Positions 11,201 to 25,090 of a stretch of 64,000 bases of DNA are shown piece after piece. Made by a program: the position numbers and the translations under genes. The number at the start of each line of letters is the position of its first letter. Position 1 is the stretch's first letter. The DNA comes from Candidatus Kaiserbacteria bacterium (GTDB taxonomy: Bacteria > Patescibacteriota > Minisyncoccia > Phycocordibacterales > Phycocordibacteraceae), in the NCBI GenBank assembly GCA_027451665.1, contig DAIDIW010000002.1, forward strand, positions 212,254 through 276,253, read 5' to 3'. The notes under the pieces are model-generated. The model ran no database searches, was not told the DNA's origin, and saw nothing but the letters and a program-made list of their open reading frames with translations.

Positions 11201-11245
11201 GCTAGGCAGCACTTTATGACGTGGTGTCATAAAGTGCTGCCTAGC
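11201..11245. repeat. Perfect 20-bp inverted repeat with 5-bp spacer
   Basis: gctaggcagcactttatgac-gtggt-gtcataaagtgctgcctagc. Confidence 0.95.
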
Positions 11246-11397
11246 CAAGTACCGTTCGCGGGCAGAAAATTCTTGCATGCCTGCACGTTCCTGCCGTTTG
11301 CTCGATACCGTCAATCGTCCGGTTTAGTCGTCTCGTCTGCCAGCACGGCCTGTGTAAGGCTCAGGCGATGATCGAGGCGCAGCAGCACGCGCGGCAG

Positions 11398-11597
11398 TCG
11401 GGAGACGCCTCCATGCCGTAGATCTCGCGCAGATGCTCGCAGATCTCCCGCGTGCTCATGCCCCGGCCGTACATCGAGATGATCTTCTCATCAAAGCCCG
11501 GAAACCGGCGCTGATATTTGGCGATCAGCTGGGGATCAAAACGCCCCTCCCGGTCCCGCGACACCGCGATGTCCACCTTGCCCGTACTGGTGGTCAC
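11398..11597 (-). pseudogene. Internal fragment of an IS256-family transposase
   Basis: TGKVDIAVSRDREGRFDPQLIAKYQRRFPGFDEKIISMYGRGMSTREI..HLREIYG matches the IS256 N-terminal region; no DDE domain or IS ends seen. Confidence 0.88.
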
Positions 11598-11675
11598 GGC
11601 TCAAGGGGTTGACTTGCAAAACTTTCCGCCACTGATAAATTTGTTCTTGGAACGTTCTGTGAACAGGAGGAGCCA

Positions 11676-11930
11676 TTGTCATCACAGCAGTCACTACTTG
11701 CATCACAAATGACCCTGACGATTCACCTAAATCCAACCAAGGAAGATCGTCGAGCTGTCACTTTGCTTCAAGAATTCAATGGGTCCGTAGCAATCATGCG
11801 CCTTGCGGCAGAGAAGAAGTTACTGTTACCTTCACTTGAAGTGAGGGGTGCACAATTCAGTGGTATCGAGCAAATTGAGCAATTCGTGGACAGCGCCCGG
11901 TCCGAAGGCGCGCCTGCTATTGCAATCTAA
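11676..11930 (+). CDS. Small hypothetical protein
   Basis: AGGAGG SD before TTG start; hairpin terminator at about 11943-11972. Confidence 0.6.
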   Translation: MSSQQSLLASQMTLTIHLNPTKEDRRAVTLLQEFNGSVAIMRLAAEKKLLLPSLEVRGAQFSGIEQIEQFVDSARSEGAPAIAI

Positions 11931-12020
11931 TCGTTCGCTCTAAGAGCGCCCCTTTCCGGGGCGCTGTCTTTATCTGCATCTGACCTTCGCCGAGAAGCGC
12001 TCCTCTGGAGGACGTGACAG

Positions 12021-12425
12021 ATGAGCGAGTTTCAATCGGGCGTCACCGCACAAGACAAATACAAAACACTCAAAGACGGCACAGTCGCCAAGTACATCTA
12101 CTACGGCTGTACACGATCGAAGGACATACACTGTAAAGGTGGGTACCTCGAAGAAAAAGTACTGCTCGCCCAGTTGTTAGAGATAATTGAAAAGCTGGAT
12201 CTTGATAAGACCGGCATGCGTCGTCAACTCGAGACTGAGATTGAGCGACATAAGGAGTTCAACGCAAGAATCCTTGGTCGTAAAGACGACTACCGAGCCA
12301 AGGATGTTGATATACGAAACTACGCAAAATATATTCTTGAGAATGGGACTGTCTTTGAAAAAAGAAGTCTCCTAGATTGTTTGAAGACTAAGATAATTCT
12401 GAAAAATAAAACTATTAGTACCTGA
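12021..12425 (+). pseudogene. C-terminal remnant of a large serine recombinase (zinc ribbon and coiled coil only)
   Basis: SGVTAQDKYKTLKDGTVAKYIYYGCTRSKDIHC parallels AAITAEEKMKKLAKGGVAHYTYYHCTKRKNPNC of the intact recombinase; first CxxC and catalytic domain missing. Confidence 0.85.
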
Positions 12426-12430
12426 TGGGA

Positions 12431-14203
12431 TTAGATGATAGACGACAAATTATCAAGGTTGACTCCACTAAGGGCAGATCCTGAGCCGCTTGGCGGTTCA
12501 GCTATTATGACTTTCTTGCCCTCTCCAAAACCAAGAGTGTAGGTGAATTTTCCTTCTTCGTAACTCATGCAATCTGGCAATAAAGTATCTTTCATTAGTT
12601 CTTCGTTCACCATTTTCTCGCCTGCATCGAGAAGTGGTTTTAGGTCAATGTAAAGCAATCTCCTCATTCTCTCTGCTTGTTCGCCGATCCATCCTTGTTT
12701 TTGGTTTCCGCCTGAAGCAAGATAAAACCCAATAAAGATCAGGTATGAACGCAACGCTGCGGGATAGTAACGTCTAATCACATTTGTGCCGATTTGTTCC
12801 CACATCCTTTTCTCGAATGGAGCACGATACCCTTCTTTTAACTGCGGGTCGTATATCATGCCGTGCAATAACTTTTGAACCGTGTGGTATGTATCATTGG
12901 ATTTCTTAATATAGGAAAGCTGATACATGCACTTGTATAAAGCAGCCGCAACACCTTCATTGATCGCTAAATCAGAATAGAAATTTGGCTCTTGGGCGGT
13001 TTTCTCTCGAGCGACGGTGTCGGTATTAAAGGTCTGATCGTTAGCAAGGTACAGATATCCATGCCCAAGGAAGTCTGCAATGATGCCCAAAGACCACCAC
13101 TCATCTTTTAGAGCATACTTTGTGTCTATTCCCCGCCTTTCTTCGATGTTTAGCTTTATACAGATATCAGCAAAAATATCGGCCAAATATTCAAAGCCAT
13201 TATTTATATGTCTTGGAGGAATTGCGCCTGTTTTCAAGTACGTTTCGATTGCTTCGGAAAGAGCCTTGATCAGCACTTCGATACCAGCGATACCAGTGTC
13301 CTTACGTTTAGCATGGCCAAGCGTTGGATAACCAAACAAATCAAAGTTAGTTAGCAGGATCGGAGATTTAAATACGGCCGTGTACACATTCGAAGAAAGA
13401 GCCAGCCCTTTATTGTCCAATTGTTTGTAGAAAAACGATTCATCATCATAGAAAAGACTGCTCATGAGCCTTGGAACTCCTATTCCTGATTGGCGCCGGC
13501 TTATACGATAATGCTCTATCGCGCCGAAAATATACAGGAGGCCGTCAAGGCGTTTTGTTGTTAGAAGGCGAACGATAGACTCATCACTTAAAACTACCTC
13601 GATGATTGAGATTGCATCTCCACTGAAGTCAGCCGATTTTGGATCGCGATTAACAGCGGCCTTGCAGACGGCGTCGAAATTTCTCAATAAAACCTCTAAA
13701 AGCGCGTTTAAACTCTCTTCGGTTGATCTAGAGATTTCTTGAACCATTACTTCATAGAATTTCCGAGATGTCTTTCTATTGAAAAGGCCTCGAGTCCTGC
13801 TTGCAAGGAACAACAAAGAAATGGGTGACGCGATGAAAAACAAATAAGCTAGGAGTTCATAGAAAAGAGTAAAATTCAGCGGGTAAGGCAAATACATCTC
13901 TGGGAATTGCGTGATGAGCACTCCAAGGAGAGTAAGAAAAAGTCCCATTCCTCCAAACACCCAAAACAGATTCCGTTCCCAGACGCTTCGAATTCTCAAA
14001 GCTATGTCCCACTTTGATCTTCTGAGCTGGTATACAGCAAAAATGAGACCGAAAGCAGCAAGGGCGGCTCCAAGATCAAGAGAGGATGGGAAGATGACTA
14101 TGTTGCCAGCACCACAAATAGGCTGAGAAGAGAAACTCAAGAGACAAGAGTGCAGGCCTGTACTGGATGCTTGTGTTAAGGTCGATATTTGAGTTTGGGA
14201 CAT
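12431..14203 (-). CDS. Hypothetical 590-aa protein with N-terminal TM helices
   Basis: Long AT-rich ORF, about 3 TM segments then a large soluble region; no motif recognised. Confidence 0.8.
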   Translation of the reverse strand: MSQTQISTLTQASSTGLHSCLLSFSSQPICGAGNIVIFPSSLDLGAALAAFGLIFAVYQLRRSKWDIALRIRSVWERNLFWVFGGMGLFLTLLGVLITQFPEMYLPYPLNFTLFYELLAYLFFIASPISLLFLASRTRGLFNRKTSRKFYEVMVQEISRSTEESLNALLEVLLRNFDAVCKAAVNRDPKSADFSGDAISIIEVVLSDESIVRLLTTKRLDGLLYIFGAIEHYRISRRQSGIGVPRLMSSLFYDDESFFYKQLDNKGLALSSNVYTAVFKSPILLTNFDLFGYPTLGHAKRKDTGIAGIEVLIKALSEAIETYLKTGAIPPRHINNGFEYLADIFADICIKLNIEERRGIDTKYALKDEWWSLGIIADFLGHGYLYLANDQTFNTDTVAREKTAQEPNFYSDLAINEGVAAALYKCMYQLSYIKKSNDTYHTVQKLLHGMIYDPQLKEGYRAPFEKRMWEQIGTNVIRRYYPAALRSYLIFIGFYLASGGNQKQGWIGEQAERMRRLLYIDLKPLLDAGEKMVNEELMKDTLLPDCMSYEEGKFTYTLGFGEGKKVIIAEPPSGSGSALSGVNLDNLSSII

Positions 14204-14398
14204 CGTACCTCTGAATGATAGACCTTCTCACCGAAGAAGGCCAAGAATCAAGTATTGATCCCTCTAGGGCGTTCGAGAAGAAAACTAGTGGGCTGCGGGG
14301 CTTGGACGATGTTAGAACTGTCCTTTTGACTGGTAAATCGCATTTCGCATATAAAATCACCATACCAGATTTGTTAGCGCGGGTGTAAACTGCGACGG

Positions 14399-14878
14399 AT
14401 GGACGACCTCTCCAACTACGAAAAGCTCCGCGCGGACGCGCAGCAGTTCTATAACGGCTTACGCCCCGTATTCTCGCCCGCGCTCAATGAGAATGTTCAC
14501 TTCACCGCCGAGGGCTTCAATCACATTATTTTCAAGGGGTCGCGTCGGGAGCGCGAGAAGCCCTCACAGATAATGCGCTTCAAAATGCTGGCGCGAGCGG
14601 CCAAGCTCATTGGCCTCTCCACCACATATCAGGAGTACGAGGAAACGCTACATGATTTTGAGGTCAAGAGCCACAAGAAACGCGTCCGCAAATCCAAACC
14701 CGTAAAGTATTGGGGTATCATCGCTATCATTGATGGACGCAAGATAAAGGTTATCGTGCGTAAAATCGGCGATAACGGGCAGCTTCACTTCTGGAGTGTA
14801 GTGCCCGCGTGGACGACAAACAAATACCGCGACGCCAAGTTCATCACCACGATGAAGGGCGACCCCGAGGAGGATTAG
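14399..14878 (+). CDS. Putative BECR/RelE-like fold nuclease
   Basis: VHFTAEGFNHII helix and C-terminal KIKVIVRKIG..GQLHFWSV strands resemble BECR-fold toxins; ORF is solid, function inferred. Confidence 0.55.
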   Translation: MDDLSNYEKLRADAQQFYNGLRPVFSPALNENVHFTAEGFNHIIFKGSRREREKPSQIMRFKMLARAAKLIGLSTTYQEYEETLHDFEVKSHKKRVRKSKPVKYWGIIAIIDGRKIKVIVRKIGDNGQLHFWSVVPAWTTNKYRDAKFITTMKGDPEED

Positions 14879-14884
14879 GCATAT

Positions 14885-14972
14885 CAAAAAACACCACACG
14901 GGGTGGTGCTCTTTGATATGCCTGCCTTCGGCTTATGTATTAGCCGAATAGGGCTGACGCCCCACAGGCACG
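14885..14972 (-). ncRNA. Candidate small structured RNA convergent on the nuclease gene
   Basis: Minus-strand promoter TTGCCG-16-TATACT with extended TG; two hairpins closed by a third stem; terminator with T6. Confidence 0.5.
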
Positions 14973-15087
14973 GAACTAGTATACCAGATTGGAGTGAAGC
15001 GGCAATGAGCTGGGGATTTCAAGCCTCGAGCCAAAAGCTTCAAGTTTACTCTTTCAGAAAGTCGTCCCCGAGAGGTATTATTTGCGA

Positions 15088-15618
15088 ATGGAAGCAACAT
15101 CGACGCTTGAACTCGCGAGCAGACTACTTGATTGGAAAGACTTGCTCTTGGCGGGATATTGGCTCGTTGGCGCTACTATTGTTGGCGTTTTGTTTCTCTG
15201 GTTCGTTTTTCGAAAACAGTGGCGCTTTTTCAAAAACATAAATAAACCCATCATCTTCATAAACCTGTCCGGTATAAGCGATGGGATGGACGTTGAAGCG
15301 AAGCTATTGCAGCGCAGTCGCTTCTTTTGTACACCGGAGGTTACGAGCGATTGTAGAAGCATCGACTTGGTCGAAAAGCAGAGCTTGGTCGTAATTGGTG
15401 TTAGCGATGCCACCGACGTGAAGCAGTTTGAGGCAATTTACCAAAAAATCGCTACACTCACGAAGCCGACTGTCATTTACACTCTAGGCGCACGTGGAAC
15501 CAGTTTCGTATCGAAAAGCGAGGCTCTCATAAAGGGATATTCTTTCCACACCATCGCCACGACGCCATTGCGTTTGGTAAGCGACATCTTCGCAATACTC
15601 TCTACATTCCCAGAATAA
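15088..15618 (+). CDS. Single-TM protein with C-terminal alpha/beta (receiver/TIR-like?) domain
   Basis: TM segment then alternating strand/helix pattern (IIFIN, LVVIG, TVIYT); converges on the nucleotidyltransferase. Confidence 0.65.
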   Translation: MEATSTLELASRLLDWKDLLLAGYWLVGATIVGVLFLWFVFRKQWRFFKNINKPIIFINLSGISDGMDVEAKLLQRSRFFCTPEVTSDCRSIDLVEKQSLVVIGVSDATDVKQFEAIYQKIATLTKPTVIYTLGARGTSFVSKSEALIKGYSFHTIATTPLRLVSDIFAILSTFPE

Positions 15619-15621
15619 GGG

Positions 15622-16398
15622 TCAGACGACCACTTGGTTCCAGTTGGTGCAACGAAGAGAAGCGGCAGCGGCATTTGCCACCAGACGCTTCTCGAGTGGG
15701 CTAAGCACGTCCGAAACAGCGTTGCTTCTATTCCCCGGGTCATATACTGTTGCAGTCTCGAAGTCGTCCCGCAAATATTCCAAGAAAGAAACAAATCGCT
15801 TCGAAATGGGTAAAAGAAGACCGAGTGGCATCGAGGCGTTCATGGCTGATAGCTCAAGGTAAAACGATGGAAAATCTAAATGGTGCTGGTCGCGCCAGAT
15901 TTTTGTGAGCTTCATTAAATCAGTCCGACCGGATTTCTTCACGGCCTCTATCTGCATACTCACGTTCGTCTTCACCCAAGTATTCTTTTTCCTCACGTAT
16001 ATCGAATGGTCGTTAGCGAGAAAAGCGCCACTTTGTAGCTTCCCGGGCACGAGGTCGACTTCTATAGCCCCGTAAGTGAGACCTATCGAAGAGTTTTGAA
16101 AGCGAGGTGAGTGACCGTTTGCCATCAAGAAGCTATGCAGGCTTTTATGGACATCGTTGAAGGTATAGGGAAGACCGGTTTTTAGGGAGATAAAAAGGTC
16201 TAAGTCAGCCGACCCTTTTATAGCAGTGCCCTTTGCATTAGAGCCAGAGAGTTGCACATAGTTTAGGTATGAGCCAGTCCATGCGCGTATGACCCTTTCG
16301 AGTTCGGACTGTGCATTACCCAAAGCAAACAGTCTCCGCAAATCAGTGGAAACCGAGTGACGCGTCAAGACGGAGTTTAGGTACGGGTCTGGGTTCAC
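15622..16398 (-). CDS. cGAS/DncV-like (CD-NTase/SMODS, OAS-like) nucleotidyltransferase
   Basis: SGSNAKGTAIKGSADLDLF, QNSSIG, EVDLVP, KLTKIWR, PSFYLEL, DPGNRSNAVS. Confidence 0.82.
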   Translation of the reverse strand: MNPDPYLNSVLTRHSVSTDLRRLFALGNAQSELERVIRAWTGSYLNYVQLSGSNAKGTAIKGSADLDLFISLKTGLPYTFNDVHKSLHSFLMANGHSPRFQNSSIGLTYGAIEVDLVPGKLQSGAFLANDHSIYVRKKNTWVKTNVSMQIEAVKKSGRTDLMKLTKIWRDQHHLDFPSFYLELSAMNASMPLGLLLPISKRFVSFLEYLRDDFETATVYDPGNRSNAVSDVLSPLEKRLVANAAAASLRCTNWNQVVV

Positions 16399-16431
16399 TA
16401 GGGTATTTTACCTCGTCGAGCACACAAAAGC

Positions 16432-17103
16432 CTAGAAGAACTTCAAAAACTCCTTGGTACGCTGTTCTTGTGGGTTTGAGATAAGCTTCTTGTCGCCGCG
16501 CTCAATGACCGCGCCGCCATCCATAAAGACGATATGGTCGCTGACGCGCTTGGCGAAGTTGATGAGGTGGCTGACTAGGAGTATGCCTACGCCCGAAGCT
16601 CGGAGTTTCTCAAGTAACGCCGCAACACGCTCTATCTGCTCAATATCCAAGGCCGAAGTAATCTCGTCAAGCAGAAGATATTTTGGTTTGAGCGCGATTG
16701 CTCGTGCGACTGCCGCACGCTGACGCTGACCAAGAGAGGTCTGATTAGGATAGCGGTCAATAAACGCTTCCATCCCGAGGGCTGCGACCAGCTCTGCAAT
16801 TTCGTCTTTAGTTGAGAGTTTTGCTAGAGTAATGTTCTGCCACAGCGTTAGATGAGGCCATAGGAATAGCTGCTGGAACACCATCGCCACGCGTGGCGAG
16901 GGGTGAGAGAGAACCTTGTCGTCCACCCGCACCTCTCCACTATCAGGAGCGTCCACCCCCGAAAGCACATTGAGCAGGGTGGTTTTGCCCGCGCCGCTCG
17001 GCCCGATAAGCGATACGATGCTGCTCGGCTCAATGGAAATATCTATGCTGTTCAAAATCAACCGTCCATCGCGCTTCTTTCCTATGTTGTGTGCGGTCAG
17101 CAT
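16432..17103 (-). CDS. Polar amino acid ABC transporter ATP-binding protein
   Basis: GPSGAGKT, SLGQRQR, LLLDEITSALD. Confidence 0.92.
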   Translation of the reverse strand: MLTAHNIGKKRDGRLILNSIDISIEPSSIVSLIGPSGAGKTTLLNVLSGVDAPDSGEVRVDDKVLSHPSPRVAMVFQQLFLWPHLTLWQNITLAKLSTKDEIAELVAALGMEAFIDRYPNQTSLGQRQRAAVARAIALKPKYLLLDEITSALDIEQIERVAALLEKLRASGVGILLVSHLINFAKRVSDHIVFMDGGAVIERGDKKLISNPQEQRTKEFLKFF

Positions 17104-17104
17104 A

Positions 17105-17767
17105 CTAGCGTTCGGAGAAATCACGAGTAAATCGCTCTCTCAAAACGTAGGCAAGATAGTAGAGCGGTGCAAGCACGAGCATAAAGAATATCGCGAGCGT
17201 AGTGTAAATCTCTACGGGTCGGTAGAGAACGGCATTGAGGTTCTGTGCTACGCGGAAAATCTCGGGAACCGAAATCAAGCTGGCGAACAGGGTAGCTTGC
17301 AAAATAAACAACTGCGTCGTGAGAACAGACGGGATGATTTGACGAAAAATCATCGGGAACTGGATGCGTCTGAAGATGTCGTTACTGGATAGCCCTGCCA
17401 TTTGTGCCGCGACGATGTACTGCTTCGGGAAGTCGGTGAGCACTCCTCTCACCAGTTCTGCGATAGCCGCGATGTTCACGATTGCGAGGGTGAGCACGGC
17501 CGTCAGGAACGGGCTAATCAAAATGCCGAGAAGCGACTGGAATGGATAGTAAAACCAGAACAGGAGAACGAGCAGCGGGATACCCGCCACAATGAACGAG
17601 GCCGTTTTGACCACCGCCCCTGCGGTTGGATTTCTCGCGCCCAGCACCCCAAACCCTGCGCCAAGGACAATACCGAGAACGGATACCGACAAGAACAGCT
17701 CAACGCTTACCAAGAGGCCTCCGAGAAGCGTTGGGTAGTAGTTCACCAGTATGCCGAGAACGGACAT
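17105..17767 (-). CDS. Polar amino acid ABC transporter permease
   Basis: GIPLLVLLF, AELVRG, EAA-like loop AAQMAGLS. Confidence 0.9.
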   Translation of the reverse strand: MSVLGILVNYYPTLLGGLLVSVELFLSVSVLGIVLGAGFGVLGARNPTAGAVVKTASFIVAGIPLLVLLFWFYYPFQSLLGILISPFLTAVLTLAIVNIAAIAELVRGVLTDFPKQYIVAAQMAGLSSNDIFRRIQFPMIFRQIIPSVLTTQLFILQATLFASLISVPEIFRVAQNLNAVLYRPVEIYTTLAIFFMLVLAPLYYLAYVLRERFTRDFSER

Positions 17768-17772
17768 TGTTG

Positions 17773-18630
17773 TTATTGCGCGTAGGGCGTTGCGGGCAGG
17801 AGATACGAATTAGATGAGGACTGATACTTGGCGACGATTTTTGCGACTGCGCCATCGTCTATGGCCTCTTGAAGCGCGACATTGAGCATCTGTTCCAAGC
17901 TACTTTCGCCAAGCGCAACCGCGTAGGCGTTTCCATAAAGGCGGAGTGGTGGAGTTTGGAGCTGACGCAGGGTGCCTGGGTTTGCTTGCAAGAACTCGGC
18001 GGCAGCATCGGGTTGTAAGAACGCAACATCGGCCTTGTTATCAATCACTTGGAGCGGGATTTGGTCAAAGGGCGCAGTCTGCGGCAGGCTGACCTGCTGC
18101 GCTTTTGGGTAATCCGATTGGGCGATTACTTGGCCGAGTTCACCGTCCTGTGTTGAGATTTTCACCGATGGGTCATTTATTGCCGCGAGATTGTTGTCAA
18201 AGCGATGGTCGCTTGTTCGCACATAGGCGTAGACGCCATTGTAGAACGCAGGGATGGTGAGATAGCCCGCCTTAGCGCGTGTGGAGTTAGCCCACAGACC
18301 GCCGCCAAACACATCGTAGCGACCTGCCGAAAGGTCGGTAAAAATCGTGCCGTATCCTGCCTCCTCAACCCACTGCACTTTCAAGCCGAGCTGTGCGGCA
18401 AGCGTGTTAGTGAGGTCATAGAAGATGCCCGAGAGCGCCCCTGTTTTCGGGTCTTGGATAACATACGGCGGATACGGGATGTAGCCAACGCGCATCGTGC
18501 CTGAGGAAATCACCTTGTTGAAGGCGGTATTTGAGGCAGTGGTTCCTTGCGAGCTATGGGTAAAGAGACCGACTACAATCGCAATAACGGCGAGGCCGAT
18601 AGCGATGTAGGAAAGGGTTTTATTTTCCAT
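17773..18630 (-). CDS. Amino acid ABC substrate-binding protein (family 3)
   Basis: GTMRVGYIPYPPY, G.LSGIFYDL, LSAGRYDV; N-terminal anchor. Confidence 0.9.
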   Translation of the reverse strand: MENKTLSYIAIGLAVIAIVVGLFTHSSQGTTASNTAFNKVISSGTMRVGYIPYPPYVIQDPKTGALSGIFYDLTNTLAAQLGLKVQWVEEAGYGTIFTDLSAGRYDVFGGGLWANSTRAKAGYLTIPAFYNGVYAYVRTSDHRFDNNLAAINDPSVKISTQDGELGQVIAQSDYPKAQQVSLPQTAPFDQIPLQVIDNKADVAFLQPDAAAEFLQANPGTLRQLQTPPLRLYGNAYAVALGESSLEQMLNVALQEAIDDGAVAKIVAKYQSSSNSYLLPATPYAQ

Positions 18631-18643
18631 ACAAAATATTGTA

Positions 18644-19336
18644 TCACCCCACTTGTGGTGCAGTAGCAAAGACAATGATTTCAGATGGCACCTCCACTAC
18701 CTCGGCCGAGTAGCCCTTCTCGGCAAGGAAGCTCTGTATCGTAGCGAGATACTTTTCGGGAAGATGTGGGTCAATGCCTTGCGAGGCGTAGTCATACATT
18801 CCCTTCACCAATCCGCCCTCAATGTTGTAGCCGTTGGAGATGGAGTAGATGACGAACGACCTCGCGACGCGCACGCTTTCTTCAAGCGCCTGTCGGGTAT
18901 CAAGGTTGGAGGCGTGGATTGCCCGCATAGAAACATATCCGTCGAAACTCTTATCGGGGAACGGCAGATGCTGGATGTCGCCGTGGACGACGCGGACTTC
19001 GGGATGCTTCTCGGAAATCTTTCCGAGCGCCGTATCGCTCAAATCCAGTGCAGTGATTTCAAAGTCCTTGAAGAACGGGATTTCAGCACCGCTATTTGCG
19101 CCAGCGATAAGGACTGACGGCCGTCCTGCACCCTGCACTGACGGCAGCACCTTCTCGACAAGCGCAGTCAGGGCGTCATCAAACTTGTGCTCGGTATCGA
19201 GTGCCCGCGCATCTTTTGCATACTCAAAATCGCCGTATTTCTCATTGAGCCGCGCGACCAGTTCGGGCAGTTTGTCTGACCGATTTGCTTGCGAGATTTG
19301 AGGGGCGGGGTTCTTCTGAAACCAGTTCCAGCGCAT
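18644..19336 (-). CDS. Class I SAM-dependent methyltransferase
   Basis: VLIAGANSG, TALDLS, GDIQHLPFPDKSFD. Confidence 0.85.
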   Translation of the reverse strand: MRWNWFQKNPAPQISQANRSDKLPELVARLNEKYGDFEYAKDARALDTEHKFDDALTALVEKVLPSVQGAGRPSVLIAGANSGAEIPFFKDFEITALDLSDTALGKISEKHPEVRVVHGDIQHLPFPDKSFDGYVSMRAIHASNLDTRQALEESVRVARSFVIYSISNGYNIEGGLVKGMYDYASQGIDPHLPEKYLATIQSFLAEKGYSAEVVEVPSEIIVFATAPQVG

Positions 19337-19360
19337 ATTACATTCGTATTTATGAAAGTG

Positions 19361-19840
19361 TCAGTCAATGAACCCACCGTGGTATGTGGCACGGTAAAGA
19401 GATTTACCGTTAAGTGAAATCTCCTCCGCGCCGCCGAAACGGTCAAGCTCGCCGTCTACGGCATTGCGATAAAGCCAGCCACCTTCCTGATGCACGGAAG
19501 GGCCGCGCACGGGAATTACGCTGCCGTGTGGTTGCATCAATGCCTTGCGCAGAAAATTGTAAACCTCCTTCTCGCTCGTGGCAGGGTCAAGGATGTAGCC
19601 GTAATAGTTCATCCCCCACACAGGCGTACCGCTCTTGTAGACAATCTCTCCACCGATGAAATCCCGTCCGCCGAAATAAGTGTCGTGGTAGGTGAGGTTG
19701 CCCTGCTCAAAGTGATAATCATCGGAGCGCGGGCGTGATGAAGGGGCTTTAGCGGCGTCCTTATTGGCGTAGGTGCTTTTGTTAGCGGCATCCAAGAAAC
19801 GCGTGAGTTCTTGAAGGTCAAGGGGGTTTGCGGCATCCAT
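19361..19840 (-). CDS. DUF5680-like protein
   Basis: YHDTYFGGRDFIGGEIVY...PVWGMNYYG, PVRGP, YHGG. Confidence 0.8.
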   Translation of the reverse strand: MDAANPLDLQELTRFLDAANKSTYANKDAAKAPSSRPRSDDYHFEQGNLTYHDTYFGGRDFIGGEIVYKSGTPVWGMNYYGYILDPATSEKEVYNFLRKALMQPHGSVIPVRGPSVHQEGGWLYRNAVDGELDRFGGAEEISLNGKSLYRATYHGGFID

Positions 19841-19869
19841 AACACCACTTTACCACCACCCGTCGTTTT

Positions 19870-20430
19870 TTATTTACCGAGGTCTACGAGCACTGTGCCA
19901 CCTCCCCAAATGCTGCCGTTGTACTGGAACTGCAAGCCCGTAGCGGTCTTGGGTATTTCAAACCCAACCCAGCCCGTGCGTTTGCTGTTAGCGATAATTG
20001 CGCCGTCTAGCGAGCTGCTCGGGTTTGACAGTTCCTTATCCGTAGCTGTTACCTGATAGCTATTGCCCTGCGCATCGCGGACGAACATCTGCCCTAGCGT
20101 TGTAACGTACTGCTGTGAGGATGACGTGTTTTGGATAGTTATGTTGAGGTCAAGCCACTCGTTGCCCGCGCTCGGAGAAGTAAACTGCCCACCGTCCGAA
20201 TAGCTGACACTGTTGACGGTGATGACCGAGCTGCCGAGCTGGATTTGGTCGCCGACCTTGTAAGTCGTCTGCGCCGTCTGTTGCGCAGGCGCTGCGGCGA
20301 TGCCATTGCTCCCGACCTTCTCGCTTGAAGGCGAGCTGCTCGCGCCGATGATTATGAGTACCACGAGAACCAAGCCCCAGAACCACCATCGTTTATAAAA
20401 CTTCTTCTTTGCTCCTTGTTGATTTTCCAT
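19870..20430 (-). CDS. DUF4352-like Ig-fold surface protein
   Basis: KKFYKRWWFW TM anchor; LNITIQN, RDAQGNSY, RTGWVGFEIPK. Confidence 0.82.
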   Translation of the reverse strand: MENQQGAKKKFYKRWWFWGLVLVVLIIIGASSSPSSEKVGSNGIAAAPAQQTAQTTYKVGDQIQLGSSVITVNSVSYSDGGQFTSPSAGNEWLDLNITIQNTSSSQQYVTTLGQMFVRDAQGNSYQVTATDKELSNPSSSLDGAIIANSKRTGWVGFEIPKTATGLQFQYNGSIWGGGTVLVDLGK

Positions 20431-20434
20431 ACGA

Positions 20435-20630
20435 GCGGCTAATGGATAAATCCAAGGGCGGGTACAGGAAACCCGCCACTAGGAAGGCCTTGCGGCCTCT
20501 ATAGGAGTTTCCCCCTATAACGCGATGAACGCCCTAATGACGGGTTTGCTAGGTTCATCGCGATTTTTGACCATACCTTGCGGCAGAGCGCCACTAGGGT
20601 TAGGTCAGCATCAACCTTTACCGGCTGACG
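20435..20630 (-). promoter_or_regulatory. About 200-nt structured 5' leader or ncRNA upstream of the DUF4352-ABC gene run
   Basis: Promoter TTCAAA-17-TAAGAT (extended TG) at 20637-20665 on minus strand; several hairpins, three with GNRA loops. Confidence 0.55.
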
Positions 20631-20703
20631 GGTACCATCTTAACACGTCAAAACTCGGCTTTGAAAACAGCTCGAGGAAGCGTAGATTTGAGGCAAAGAT
20701 TCA

Positions 20704-21447
20704 ATGAACCCCGAACAGAAAATCAAGCACGAAATCTGGCTCGTATTACAGCAGCTCAAAGAGGACTATCTGCTTACACCCGAGAATAACTACGCGGTCT
20801 ACGAAATCGCACAAGCCCGCGAGCACCCTAACTTCCCAACGCTTCATAATCAACTCAAAATCCTAAAGAAGCTAGAGCACGATGGAGCACTCAAGATAGT
20901 GCGCAGCTACTACGTAACTCGACGTGGCACGAGCCTCGCGGACGCAGTTGATTTTGGTATGTACCACGACGCAGACCCGAAAGGTATTTTGCTTGGTGTG
21001 CTGTTTCCGAGGTTTGATGAGCTATATGCCGAGTATTCGCAATACAGCGCCGAACCGATAACGCCTGAGATTGAGACAAAAAAGTACGTCATTGAGCTCA
21101 AAGACCGAGGGGTTTGGGTCAATGAATTTCTATTGAGCAGGCCGCACGCTACCGGTAAGAATATGGGCTTCTTTGAGTACGTGTTTGAGCATCCCGACAA
21201 ACTCATCTCACGCGATAGTTTGCCGAAGTTCGTACAACAGGACGTAGCCGCCCGCAGTTTTTCCAAGGTGCTCAATGACCTCGGCTTCAAGGGTGAGATA
21301 CTCAAGGTATTCTTCCCCGAACGGGGTAAAAGTCAGCTGCGGTTCAGAAAGGAAGTCACCTTGAGCCAGCTCGCTAAAAGCGGCATAAATACCGACTTGC
21401 TATTACAGGAGCTACGCCTCGCGCATTTGAAGAGCAGTCCGAAATAG
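20704..21447 (+). CDS. Hypothetical protein, possible winged-helix DNA-binding regulator
   Basis: 247-aa ORF; C-terminal FFEYVFEHPDKLISRDSL resembles OmpR-type winged-helix segments. Confidence 0.6.
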   Translation: MNPEQKIKHEIWLVLQQLKEDYLLTPENNYAVYEIAQAREHPNFPTLHNQLKILKKLEHDGALKIVRSYYVTRRGTSLADAVDFGMYHDADPKGILLGVLFPRFDELYAEYSQYSAEPITPEIETKKYVIELKDRGVWVNEFLLSRPHATGKNMGFFEYVFEHPDKLISRDSLPKFVQQDVAARSFSKVLNDLGFKGEILKVFFPERGKSQLRFRKEVTLSQLAKSGINTDLLLQELRLAHLKSSPK

Positions 21448-21474
21448 TCCGAAGTCATCCAGTTCAATCCGGAA
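21435..21474 (+). repeat. Four 10-bp-phased imperfect direct repeats
   Basis: cagtccgaaa tagtccgaag tcatccagtt caatccggaa; TCC at exact 10-bp spacing. Confidence 0.7.
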
Positions 21475-21516
21475 ACCAAGACCGCTTTATTTCAACGACC
21501 ATACTGCCAAGACAGT

Positions 21517-21702
21517 ATGGTCGTTTCTGATGCCCACATCGCCGAGTTCCAAAAACTCTACAGGGAGCATTTTGGCATTGAACTCCCGAAAGCGCAAGCG
21601 CTTGAGAAGAGCATCCGTCTCGTCCGTCTGATTGAAACCGTCAGCCGCGCTCTTGCAAAGGAGCAGGCCGAAATCCCTACCAACCTAATACCACCAACAT
21701 AA
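21517..21702 (+). CDS. Small helical protein typical of CPR mobile elements
   Basis: SDAHIAEFQKLYREHFGIELPKAQALEKSIRLVRL; first gene of the Rep operon. Confidence 0.75.
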   Translation: MVVSDAHIAEFQKLYREHFGIELPKAQALEKSIRLVRLIETVSRALAKEQAEIPTNLIPPT

Positions 21703-21703
21703 T

Positions 21704-22063
21704 ATGGAAACGCGTGATGATACCCAGCCTGCAACCGAAGAAGATATGAAAGCAACCTTTAAGAGCAGCGAGTGGCAGAAGTTAAAGGTTCTCATTGATG
21801 AGACAGAACAGCAAATGGAAGCGATGAACCTCGTCCCACTCAATAAGGGCGGTGAACAATATATCCGCGACCGCTACCCAATCGCCGTGCTCTATCACCG
21901 AGCTTATCTTCAAGATGTTGCGATGACCGAGTGCAATACGATGCTCACAGAAGAAGAAATCCAAAATATAGGATGCTCCTTCTTTGACGACTTTCCGGAT
22001 GAAATTTGGCTTGCGATTATCGAAGCAGTGAAGTTGGTCGTCAGCGAGCGCAATTCCTCTTGA
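21704..22063 (+). CDS. Hypothetical acidic protein
   Basis: 119-aa ORF starting 1 nt after the previous stop. Confidence 0.7.
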   Translation: METRDDTQPATEEDMKATFKSSEWQKLKVLIDETEQQMEAMNLVPLNKGGEQYIRDRYPIAVLYHRAYLQDVAMTECNTMLTEEEIQNIGCSFFDDFPDEIWLAIIEAVKLVVSERNSS

Positions 22064-22112
22064 GCTGCCTCGCAGGGTTCCTTGAAAAACACCGACAACA
22101 ACGAAAACAGCT

Positions 22113-23279
22113 ATGGATACCGTCATCATCAAACTCAATGGGTTCAAAGTCGCCAACATCTCGCTATTCCTGCCAGAACTCAATAAGCGTCGTTTCCAAG
22201 ACCTCTCGCCTACGGAGCGGCAGTCAACGCGTACTTACCTCCGTGCGTTTCGCTTTGAACCACCACACCAAGACGCGTACCTGCCAAAAATAGAGGTTTA
22301 CGAGGCACTGAATGATGACCGTAACGAGCTAACCTACACACTCCAAGCGAGGTTCTCTGTCCCGAAGCTCCTCTACGGCAACAGCGTGCAGGAGGTGAAC
22401 GATAACGACCTTGAACGCGTCATCTATGCTTTTACGAAGGCGCTAACAGGAGCAGGCATTGTCGTCAGTAGCACGACCGTCGCTAATGCTCGCGTTTCGC
22501 AGGTGGACTTCTGCAAAAATATAATCCTGCCACGCGACATACGGATGCAGGAGGTCTTGACCGAGTTGCAGCGCACAGATATCAGCAAAGCGATTGATAT
22601 GACCCAGAAGGAGTACAAGCACGGTGGCCGTACTCTCCACATTTATTCGCAAACCGTGGAGCGTGTCTTTTACGACAAGGTGAACGACGCCACGCGGCCC
22701 AAGGGCAAACGCAAGGATAAAGGGCATATTGAGCGCGAACGCGAAGTGATAGACCGCTATGGGTTAGCGAACCGCGAGATTTTCCGCTACGAGTATCGCT
22801 TGAAGAAAAATCAGGCCGTGAAGCAGAAAGTGAACGCCGCACTTAGGCGACCGTATCCAACAGTCGTTCAACTCAAAGACCTTTTCACGCCCAACCTTTG
22901 CAAAACGATTTTATTGCAATCGTGGCGCGACCTCATCCAACGCCCCGAGAACCAGCTCGCACTTCTCGGCCCAAAGGACGACCTTGCGCTCCTGCAGCAC
23001 ATAATGGGTGGAGCGCGTGAGCAGGGCGCGGTACACAGTATGAACCGTGCTTTCACCTCCTACGGCCTTACACGCGCCATACGCGACCACGGAGCAAAAG
23101 AAGTGCGTAAGGCAGCTGCGGGTTGGAACGCCAACCACGGCGAGCGCCTTACCAAGAAAATGAGAGTTGCGGCCGCACTTACCGAAGGGCTGCCGTATTC
23201 AAATAGTATCGCCGTTGTGTCTGCGTCACTTGAGCAGTTTGAGTACATTTCCCTTTCAACACTTGAAAATGTGGTATAA
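22113..23279 (+). CDS. Phage/plasmid rolling-circle replication initiator (gene II/X, Rep_trans-like)
   Basis: MDTV start, FSVPKLLYGN, VSQVDFCKN, FYDK (putative catalytic Tyr), RYEYRL. Confidence 0.75.
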   Translation: MDTVIIKLNGFKVANISLFLPELNKRRFQDLSPTERQSTRTYLRAFRFEPPHQDAYLPKIEVYEALNDDRNELTYTLQARFSVPKLLYGNSVQEVNDNDLERVIYAFTKALTGAGIVVSSTTVANARVSQVDFCKNIILPRDIRMQEVLTELQRTDISKAIDMTQKEYKHGGRTLHIYSQTVERVFYDKVNDATRPKGKRKDKGHIEREREVIDRYGLANREIFRYEYRLKKNQAVKQKVNAALRRPYPTVVQLKDLFTPNLCKTILLQSWRDLIQRPENQLALLGPKDDLALLQHIMGGAREQGAVHSMNRAFTSYGLTRAIRDHGAKEVRKAAAGWNANHGERLTKKMRVAAALTEGLPYSNSIAVVSASLEQFEYISLSTLENVV

Positions 23280-23423
23280 TAAACTCGTTGACCCACTTGT
23301 GAGCCGTTTGTCGCCAGAGGTTTTATCATTTATAGATAGCGGGGCGAAAGGGGCGGTCTGCCACTATCTGTATTCCTCTGGTTTACGGCATAAGTGGGTC
23401 AACCAGACCGTCCCTTTTGCTAT
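23272..23423 (+). promoter_or_regulatory. Extended -10 promoter and structured leader of the recombinase gene
   Basis: TGgTATAAT at 23272-23280; long hairpin 23287-23403; loop complementary to 23404-23420. Confidence 0.65.
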
Positions 23424-25031
23424 ATGAAAACTCACCAAAAAATCAAATACTTCGCCTACCTCCGTAAGTCGTCGGAAGGAAAAGAAAAACAGGCGCTCTC
23501 CATTCCTGCGCAACGTGCCCAGCTTTCAGAGCGCTTCTCTGATTTAGATATTGAGTTTGTGGAAGAGGAACGTAGCGCTTTTCTGCCACTCAATCGGCCG
23601 AGGTTCAGCGATATGCTCCTGCGCGTCCGTAGTGGCGAGCGGCAAGGACTGCTCGCGTGGCATCCCGACCGCCTTTCTCGCAATGAGGTGGATGCGAGCG
23701 CGATTACTTATATGCTCCGCACGGGCGAACTCAAAGACCTCAAGTTTGCCACCTATCATTTTGAGAACAACTCGCCCGAGGGTATTTGGATGTTGCAAAT
23801 GGCACTCTCGCAGTCGCAATACGAGAGCGCGAAGAAGGGGCGCGATGTGAAGCGCGGTACCGCACAGAGCGCAAAGAGCGGTTTTTATCCCGCGCCAGCA
23901 CCTATCGGATACCTCAATGACAAGTTCACCGAGCGTGGAAAGAAAAAGAAGCGCCCCGACCCCGAGCGCTTTGCTCTCACACGCAGACTTTTTGACTTGA
24001 TGCTGACAGGCAACTATACGCCTCCGCAAATCCACGACATAGCCGTAAACGAGTGGGGCTTCCGTGGGCCGAAGGGCCGCAAACTTTCCCGCAGTAGTGT
24101 CTACAACATCTTCACTCGGCCGTTCTATTTCGGCGAGTTCGAGCATCCCGCAGGAAGCGGTATTTGGTATAAAGGCGACCACGAACCGATGATTACCCGC
24201 GAGGAATATGACCGTATCCAGTTCCTGCTTGGGCGTAAGGGTAACCCGCGACCGAAGGAACATAAAGACATCGCTTATCGCGGCCCCATGAAATGCGGCG
24301 AATGCGGAGCAGCGATTACCGCCGAGGAGAAGATGAAAAAGCTCGCCAAGGGCGGTGTCGCACACTATACCTACTACCACTGCACTAAGCGCAAGAACCC
24401 GAACTGCTCGCAGCATTCCATTGAGGAGACAAAGCTGGAAAAGCAAATCGCTAAGGAACTTGGGAAGCTCAAAATCCCCGCTGGCTTTACCGCGTGGGCG
24501 GTCGCGCGGCTGAAAGACCAGAACGCCAAAGAGATTACTGACCGCGAGGTGGTCTACAGCAATCAACGCAAGGAGTACGAGGCATGCGTCCGCAAGATAG
24601 ACAACCTGATTGATATGCGGGCAAACAGCGAGATTGACGAGCAGGAGTTCAGGAGCAGAAAGGAAACGCTTCTCGCCGAAAAGGAACGCACTCAAGCACT
24701 CCTGCTAGACACAGACAAGCGCGTAGAGAATTGGCTTGAGGTCGCAGAGCGCGGCTTCAATTTCGCAGAGAAAGCGCCAGCCGTATTCGCCAAGGCAGCG
24801 GCAGATGAGGACTTTGCGACCTGCAAGGAGATATTTACGGCTCTGGGTTCGAACTACACGCTCATAGACGGAAAGTTGAGCATTTCCTTGGATAATCTGC
24901 TGTTCCCGATACAGGAAATCGCGGATGCAATCTGCGACATTCCCTCTCCGTTAGAACTAGAGAAAAACAAAGGAGATGCAAAGGATTTCGGACAACTCTA
25001 CGCCGAAAATCCACGAGTGCTGGGGGACTAG
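23424..25031 (+). CDS. Large serine recombinase (integrase)
   Basis: YLRKSS catalytic Ser, DRLSRN, APIGY, recombinase domain (HEPMITREEY), CGECG...YYHC zinc ribbon, coiled coil. Confidence 0.95.
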   Translation: MKTHQKIKYFAYLRKSSEGKEKQALSIPAQRAQLSERFSDLDIEFVEEERSAFLPLNRPRFSDMLLRVRSGERQGLLAWHPDRLSRNEVDASAITYMLRTGELKDLKFATYHFENNSPEGIWMLQMALSQSQYESAKKGRDVKRGTAQSAKSGFYPAPAPIGYLNDKFTERGKKKKRPDPERFALTRRLFDLMLTGNYTPPQIHDIAVNEWGFRGPKGRKLSRSSVYNIFTRPFYFGEFEHPAGSGIWYKGDHEPMITREEYDRIQFLLGRKGNPRPKEHKDIAYRGPMKCGECGAAITAEEKMKKLAKGGVAHYTYYHCTKRKNPNCSQHSIEETKLEKQIAKELGKLKIPAGFTAWAVARLKDQNAKEITDREVVYSNQRKEYEACVRKIDNLIDMRANSEIDEQEFRSRKETLLAEKERTQALLLDTDKRVENWLEVAERGFNFAEKAPAVFAKAAADEDFATCKEIFTALGSNYTLIDGKLSISLDNLLFPIQEIADAICDIPSPLELEKNKGDAKDFGQLYAENPRVLGD

Positions 25032-25090
25032 GATTCGAACCTAGATTGACGGGACCAAAACCCGCTGTCCTACCATTAGACGATCCCCCA
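25020..25090 (-). tRNA. tRNA-Gln(TTG)
   Basis: Cloverleaf tggggga...tcccccag, anticodon loop tt-TTG-gt, GGTTCGAATCC; no encoded CCA. Confidence 0.95.

Follow-up and report, generated by a model that had tools for sequence, protein, structure and literature searches.

A predicted integrating rolling-circle element at the tip of a tRNA-Gln gene in a Candidatus Kaiserbacteria genome

Introduction

Islands that enter a stable-RNA gene by means of a large serine recombinase have been described in Dehalococcoides. Their integrase, DsiB (~540 aa), has a 3' end that overlaps the attachment (att) site within the ssrA gene, and McMurdie et al. proposed that DsiB is whole only on the excised circle (PMC3146451; cited here, like PMC3545932, PMC4797284, PMC5714925 and PMC5737381, from the available part of the text). 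Here, we analyze a 64,000-nucleotide stretch of DNA (the window; contig DAIDIW010000002.1) from the 720-kb genome of a Candidatus Kaiserbacteria bacterium of the Candidate Phyla Radiation (CPR), whose relatives are Patescibacteria. Within it lies a 10.7-kb segment that is probably an integrative element, inserted by a serine recombinase at the tip of a tRNA-Gln gene and predicted to excise and to copy itself as a rolling circle.

This element resembles the Dehalococcoides islands in the overlap of its att site with a stable-RNA gene, in an integrase proposed to be whole on the circle, in tandem accretion and in the lack of transfer genes. Unlike it, those islands target the tmRNA gene, carry a second, small recombinase (DsiA) together with ParB and Mom genes, lack a rolling-circle Rep and are bounded by clear direct repeats (PMC3146451), whereas the present element targets tRNA-Gln, has none of the dsiA-parB-mom module and has an att core of ~4 bp. 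The TLC element of Vibrio likewise combines a Cri/pII-type initiator and a regulator with no morphogenesis genes, and exists in integrated and plasmid forms; it differs in its use of host XerCD at dif-like sites, its five open reading frames (ORFs), its lack of an integrase, and its proven packaging by a helper (PMC3545932). As for the Rep protein, its fold, its catalytic Tyr on a strand, its YxKxxD/E and RxE motifs and its N-terminal Asp are shared with RepD/RepSTK1 and with the ICEBs1 and Tn916 relaxases (PMC4797284, PMC5714925). It differs from these in its low identity to Rep_trans initiators and relaxases (12–14%), in an altered RxD motif and in a candidate origin that is not a hairpin. 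Finally, the staphylococcal cassette chromosome (SCC; CcrA/B/C) is also a serine-recombinase cassette with variable cargo; the present element differs from it in having a single recombinase, a tRNA target and a rolling-circle Rep.

No published precedent combining all these parts was found in the literature searched, the nearest being the DsiB islands and the TLC satellite, nor any description of the element, its leader or its RNA-protein pair (subscription journals lie outside the coverage of that search); the available part of bioRxiv 10.64898/2026.10.21.760802 does not mention CPR. On sequence grounds, the element is a variant of the DsiB-island and TLC designs that looks intact and is presumably mobile. 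A preliminary description of this locus had presented it as a little-described class of CPR integrative replicon or satellite. Its identification as an integrative element of CPR whose Rep is of the II/X type stands; its novelty was overstated, given that a serine recombinase overlapping a stable-RNA gene had been published (PMC3146451).

Results and Discussion

Boundaries of the element and its attachment sites

The features of the locus are collected in Table 1, and include every part listed in the preliminary description (regulator-like ORF, 61- and 119-aa ORFs, Rep, leader, recombinase, tRNA-Gln, CD-NTase and ABC transporter). The element spans 14292–25022 (10,727 bp). Host genes have a GC content of about 59%, compared to 52% for 14291–25030 and 43% for 12021–14290.

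Table 1. Features of the element and its ends, in window coordinates.
Feature	Position	Strand	Evidence and remarks
attL	14291..14295	+	core GCTG at 14292–14295, common to both ends
Stranded integrase tail, 32 codons (predicted)	14293..14388	+	starts LRGLDDVRT; in frame with integrase across shared core
159-aa protein, candidate RNase toxin	14399..14878	+	LPD3 E 0.0017, weak, below cut-off
Small RNA, three-way junction (14918–14971) and terminator	14880..14971	-	convergent on 159-aa gene
One-transmembrane (TM) protein	15082..15618	+	PADLOC C3a59 E 1.5e-11; hydrophobic segment at residue 21
cGAS/DncV-like nucleotidyltransferase (CD-NTase), oligonucleotide cyclase-like	15622..16398	-	PADLOC cyclase E 1e-73
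ATP-binding cassette (ABC) transporter, amino-acid type (ATPase, permease, SBP_bac_3)	16432..18675	-	Pfam
S-adenosylmethionine (SAM) methyltransferase, DUF5680 and DUF4352 cargo genes	18644..20430	-	Pfam
LOOT RNA (RF03000)	20484..20606	-	full length, 80.5 bits (gathering threshold 46.4); heads cargo operon
Regulator-like ORF, 247 aa	20704..21447	+	no Pfam match
Four phased 10-bp TCC units, candidate regulator binding sites	21436..21475	+	putative
61-aa conserved core protein	21517..21702	+	homologues ahead of Rep in many relatives
119-aa accessory ORF	21704..22063	+	homologue in few relatives only
Conserved motif, candidate nick site/double-strand origin	22075..22100	+	38 nt ahead of Rep
Rep, Phage_CRI (G2P, II/X) family, Rep_trans fold	22113..23279	+	Pfam, predicted fold, catalytic residues
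Extended -10 box TGGTATAAT	23272..23280	+	overlaps Rep stop codon; conserved in relatives
Structured integrase leader RNA, two competing long helices	23287..23421	+	135 nt; folding and covariation
Large serine recombinase, 535 aa as integrated	23424..25031	+	Resolvase, Recombinase and Zn ribbon domains; PHROG 95 E 2.6e-65
tRNA-Gln(TTG)	25019..25090	-	ARAGORN, Rfam; attR core GCTG at 25019–25022

The left end was located by comparison with a second genome (G062), whose integrase, at the same tRNA, is 90% identical. In a DNA search, the two share a 79-nt match (86% identity) whose first base is exactly 14291. Because identity starts at this base, with a host-type hydrolase gene to its left in G062, the left end is placed at about 14292. 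This rules out position 12036, given in the preliminary description, and makes the element 2.3 kb shorter than had been flagged. The attL site differs from the tRNA tip at 3 of 14 nt. In both genomes the left ends read GCTGCG and the tRNAs read GCTGGG, and therefore the crossover lies at or within the GCTG core. Judged from these alignments, the crossover is in the last bases of the tRNA, inside the integrase gene. No long tRNA-fragment repeat was found at the left end, and the attL core is only ~4 bp.

Comparison with relatives leads to the same insertion. A tRNA-Gln is present at 24 of 30 dnaX loci, and a recombinase adjoins it in 2 of the 23 from other genomes; genes of the window's left flank lie 0.45–5.0 kb from tRNA-Gln in six of seven relatives, as opposed to 14.3 kb here. 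The insertion is established by relatives whose site is empty, and attL, attR and the empty attB are all identified, so that the empty-site comparison advocated in the preliminary description did define the att sites. As a separate observation, in three genus relatives (L010, L014 and L018) the intact tRNA is immediately followed by partial 3' halves of a tRNA-Gln that belong to another sequence type, and a single genus has two very dissimilar tRNA-Gln(TTG) types at this site. The partial halves possibly record replacement of the tRNA by earlier elements.

The integrase and its stranded tail

The integrase frame is intact and contains all three domains; its stop codon lies 13 bases inside the opposite-strand tRNA-Gln gene. 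Relative to the locus L005, which shares both the core and the tRNA target and has 79% DNA identity, the ratio of nonsynonymous to synonymous change is ~0.05 for the integrase and ~0.09 for Rep, both from ungapped counts at high synonymous divergence. CcrB is the best NCBIfam match of the integrase, far below the cut-off.

Integration would separate the integrase from 32 further codons, which lie at the left end of the element. If the two were joined on the circle, the protein would have 563 aa instead of the 535 aa encoded by the integrated form. The LRGLDDVRT motif of the tail occurs once in the window. Of 40 loci, 22 of them with at least 8 kb of upstream DNA, 7 carry it upstream in the same orientation (the window included, and L138 and L152 being one element), and it was not found once on the opposite strand in 258 kb; the tail-bearing elements are 6.6–12.6 kb long. 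Truncation of the integrase at the tRNA is the norm across the family. Across all loci, a true fused tail is present in 2 of 96 integrase frames, a third regex match being spurious. One of the two, L203, is a linear contig from IMG/VR with a primase-type element and a distant integrase fused to the tail, with no tRNA in the locus; the other, L128, is probably a tandem junction. A search for longer proteins containing the tail gave nothing, although this is a weak test. With its two defined protein forms, the proposed tail swap opens the hypothesis that DsiB is whole only on the circle to a direct test.

Rep and the motif ahead of its gene

The preliminary description had called a II/X-type Rep, and this call is upheld by both Pfam and predicted fold. 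Rep scores 26.0 bits against PF05144 (Phage_CRI; cut-off 21.7), joins its Atlas clusters at 0.96, with PF05144 on 17–26% of cluster members, and has 773 relatives at 50% clustering. The best alignments of its predicted structure are with the three Rep_trans structures, and the nearest viral folds include inovirus G2P models. Among 121 sequences, Y187, K189, D/E192 and E227 are conserved in all, R225 in 117 and D2 in 116. The N-terminal Asp and motifs III (YxKxxE) and IV (RxE) are present, and motif II (T/SxY/ExG) has no letter-for-letter match; a PDB sequence search with the Rep profile returned nothing useful. On the strength of the Pfam match, the predicted structure and the catalytic residues, Rep is a rolling-circle initiator of the Rep_trans fold and Phage_CRI family, and not an HUH Rep.

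Of 77 loci, 58 have a conserved motif ahead of Rep, usually in one copy each, at 29–58 nt from the Rep start (mostly 34–38). It has a single copy in the window, is missing from the ten loci of the distant clade, and has a partial duplication in L074. We infer that it is the Rep nick site, the alternative being an operator or promoter. Ten matches to the pattern in viral contigs had no Rep nearby. Four loci (L114, L115, L107 and L148) have a Rep and an origin-like motif with no integrase match nearby, and are possible non-integrating forms.

Could the element be a satellite of a CPR filamentous phage, its Rep making single-stranded circles that a helper inovirus packages? TLC, with its Cri replicase and without morphogenesis genes, is packaged by fs2 (PMC3545932), and inoviruses occur in CPR, some of them encoding serine recombinases (PMC6813254). 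The G2P folds near Rep and the element sizes given above would also fit. However, no Rep relative was found in IMG/VR (by a pattern-seeded, insensitive search) and no packaging signal was identified, and we regard this origin as unlikely. Searches with Pfam and PHROGs found no capsid, morphogenesis (including pI/Zot-like ATPase and coat) or type IV secretion genes in the element, whose sole ATPase is the ABC subunit.

Alternatively, Rep may act mainly as a MOB_T-like relaxase, with the motif as its origin of transfer (oriT); the element would then be integrative and mobilizable, and depend on a conjugative helper for its transfer. Such systems typically have the nick site immediately ahead of the relaxase gene. 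Rep_trans enzymes do serve as the relaxases of ICEBs1 and Tn916, with overlapping roles in replication and transfer (PMC5714925); consequently, the statement in the preliminary description that phage and conjugation genes are absent holds for capsid, morphogenesis and type IV secretion genes and is not strict for conjugation. Nevertheless, the sequence family of Rep is Phage_CRI and not PF02486, and the element contains no coupling protein or secretion gene, which leaves the relaxase reading quite improbable.

Distribution of the family

Rep is patchily distributed, being present in 4 of 41 relatives and in 17 of 401 class genomes (self included). Together with the empty sites at tRNA-Gln, this shows that the region is not conserved and syntenic in relatives. 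The order of Rep, recombinase and tRNA, which the preliminary description had proposed to search for, recurs in many CPR genomes: of 18 genome loci, 14 have an integrase after Rep and 12 a tRNA overlap, and among the metagenome loci with at least 2.1 kb downstream (27 of 68), an integrase lies within 320 bp in 23 and overlaps a tRNA in 20. In these counts, some rows repeat one element, and related loci do not count as independent. The targets across the family are tRNAs for Gln, Asp, His, Asn, Glu, Trp and Leu.

Structured RNAs: the integrase leader and the partner of the 159-aa gene

The three structured non-coding regions named in the preliminary description have folding z-scores against shuffles of -4.73 (integrase leader), -5.79 (LOOT region) and -9.69 (small RNA), and they include candidates for the RNA-level control that it suggested: the leader probably acts on the integrase, and the small RNA on the 159-aa protein.

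In an alignment of 30 leaders, picked by resemblance, pairing in the closing helix reaches 98%, and 7 of its 9 pairs have both bases changed. A further duplex of 11–22 bp (mean 17.3, versus 7.6 in shuffles) joins an inner segment to the 3' tail, the exception being L134, in which the best duplex lies elsewhere; in the window this helix has 18 bp and ends 2 nt before the ATG. On the MAFFT alignment, pairing in a hand-drawn middle helix is no more than 61%. It is unlikely that both long helices form at once, and we therefore infer that the leader is an RNA switch for the integrase. The leader model matches 7 of 151 genomes. Since a recombinase follows it in the other six, and this Rep precedes it in only one, the leader belongs to the integrase. 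In the same slot, five relatives have a small ORF that, by eye, we take to be excisionase-like, and five have almost nothing. Other folded-looking leaders, of different sequence, occupy the slot at L113:1060-1176, L148 and L094. The leader has no match in Rfam. Its use as a guide for the target tRNA was ruled out by visual comparison, since leader subtypes show no correspondence with targets.

The 159-aa protein has 2442 relatives and occurs in 25 of 301 class genomes. In 25 of the 26 loci examined (of 28 matches), the small RNA lies 74–100 nt past the stop codon of its gene; here, a promoter-like site for it is found at 15005–14978. Two of its helices are 99.6% paired in 24 aligned copies, with 6 of 12 pairs compensatory, and the three-way-junction fold is present in 23 of the 24 (row L238, which had no match, was left out, as was L232, without a terminator, from the RNA alignment). 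Rfam gave no match for this RNA and no credible match in eight such loci. An antisense role towards the 159-aa gene was rejected, the longest complementarity being 7 nt. The pair adjoins attL in this copy only (1 of 26 loci), and we thus consider it an independent cargo.

In type III toxin-antitoxin systems, a small structured RNA is tied to one protein family, and the toxin is an RNase that the RNA binds and blocks. That the 159-aa protein is an RNase is our guess, from conserved His, Arg and Gln residues and motifs of BECR-type nucleases. A PDB sequence search with its profile gave nothing useful, the available part of PMC5512222 did not settle the question, and the relevant terms were not found in PMC11980606. 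The DUF3800, drum and skipping-rope RNAs (PMC5737381) are likewise small structured RNAs with their own terminator, tied to one protein family and often on the other strand; the present RNA differs from them in its protein family and in its own fold, in having no Rfam match, and in being a single copy instead of a repeat array. The leader and the RNA-protein pair are of small size, show covariation and lend themselves readily to assays in E. coli.

Candidate regulators upstream of Rep

The nearest named Atlas cluster of the regulator-like ORF is Trans_reg_C, at 0.84, and its C-terminal domain is found in 5 of 55 other upstream genes; a C-terminal winged helix is possible, as a lead only. The phased repeats noted in the preliminary description are there, and no 3-mer other than TCC has four repeats at a period of 10 in the 64 kb, although the signal is modest, as five places reach an equal column score. 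Homologues of the 61-aa protein adjoin 9 of 10 integrase loci from viral contigs, which makes it a candidate directionality factor or repressor.

A proposed cycle and the points that weigh against it

In the cycle that we propose, Rep would nick at the conserved motif just ahead of its own gene, under the control of the regulator, the phased sites and the 61-aa protein. Transcription of the integrase mRNA would start at the -10 box that overlaps the end of Rep, and its leader would alternate between a rod, in which the start region is accessible, and the 18-bp helix next to the ATG. Recombination in the GCTG core would restore the longer integrase on the circle, such that the integrated and circular states make different enzymes. 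The circle would also place the 159-aa gene directly behind the integrase, an arrangement suited to a maintenance toxin held by RNA. The cargo (cyclase, transporter, and 159-aa protein with its small RNA) would be exchangeable, and transfer from cell to cell would require outside help or DNA uptake.

Several observations weigh against an excising rolling-circle element. Motif I of Rep (RxD) is not kept in that form, with QVD at 130–132 here and a His in the family consensus. The origin-like motif does not fold into a hairpin, and the loci in which it was counted are also those from which its pattern was derived. The tail was located in just 7 of 40 loci, and about 4 of 27 metagenome loci have no integrase at 320 bp or less from Rep. 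Terminal repeats, as expected of circular forms, were found in none of 85 G2P-Rep loci tested, and Rep relatives had no match in viral contigs (IMG/VR, with the insensitive search above), plasmids or phage records. A fixed island, with mobility lost and a dead, truncated integrase, would agree with the fact that no excision was seen and with the decayed recombinase remnant and IS256 fragment adjoining the element, but its core frames are all open and under purifying selection, attL and the tail frame are intact and the truncation is normal for the family, making such an island extremely unlikely.

We continue to regard the integrating rolling-circle element as the probable reading. A broader proposal would see in it an undescribed CPR class of integrating single-strand replicons, in which a leader switch, a swap of the integrase C-terminus that sets direction, and a new RNA-antitoxin system, made up of the three-way-junction RNA and a nuclease family of over 2,400 members to which the 159-aa protein would belong and switched on at circularization, act together; the leader switch would be modular, standing where relatives carry the excisionase-like gene. 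As a joint claim, this is doubtful, and we put it forward tentatively.

To our knowledge, few plasmids or genetic tools have been described for CPR bacteria. If the rolling-circle reading is true, a compact element that brings its own initiator, origin candidate and tRNA-tip integrase would account for the movement of defence and transport genes among CPR, and the element could supply a replicon and an integration vector for them.

LOOT RNA and cargo genes

LOOT RNAs were found in 3 of 10 related elements scanned and in 29 of 151 class genomes, usually ahead of variable genes. A second copy in this genome lies at C1:9213-9338. At the CPR LOOT loci (L163–L192), the RNA almost invariably precedes a GGCGGG-type tract and a U run, after which comes a variable gene, often for a membrane protein. 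From these sequences, LOOT in CPR has the look of a terminator-coupled leader; no description of it is given in the available part of the main text of PMC5737381.

In the operon that it heads, the DUF4352 gene matches a phage family of unknown function. The CD-NTase falls below the cut-off of the NCBIfam models for the cyclic-oligonucleotide-based anti-phage signalling system (CBASS). At 15082–16398, it stands at the end of the ABC-transporter operon, convergent with the one-TM protein, which matches a model for a type III CRISPR-associated effector and is possibly a nucleotide-sensing effector. This is an unusual layout for CBASS.

The adjoining block and other recombinases

The segment 12021–14290 is a separate block adjoining the element, with a recombinase remnant of another clade and a 590-aa membrane protein. 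The remnant (12021–12425) is 42–43% identical to other recombinases of the genome versus 30–38% to the element integrase. More widely, 11361–14203 is a low-GC block containing an IS256 transposase fragment, an 84-aa ORF, the remnant, which is C-terminal, and the 590-aa protein, which has no family; a perfect 20-bp inverted repeat lies at 11201–11245. At least six further serine recombinase genes or remnants are present in the genome, some of them ending in tRNAs (Glu, Val), with loci at G000 C1:41-1723, C1:152066-153229 and C2:122629-123546 and on C7 and C9.

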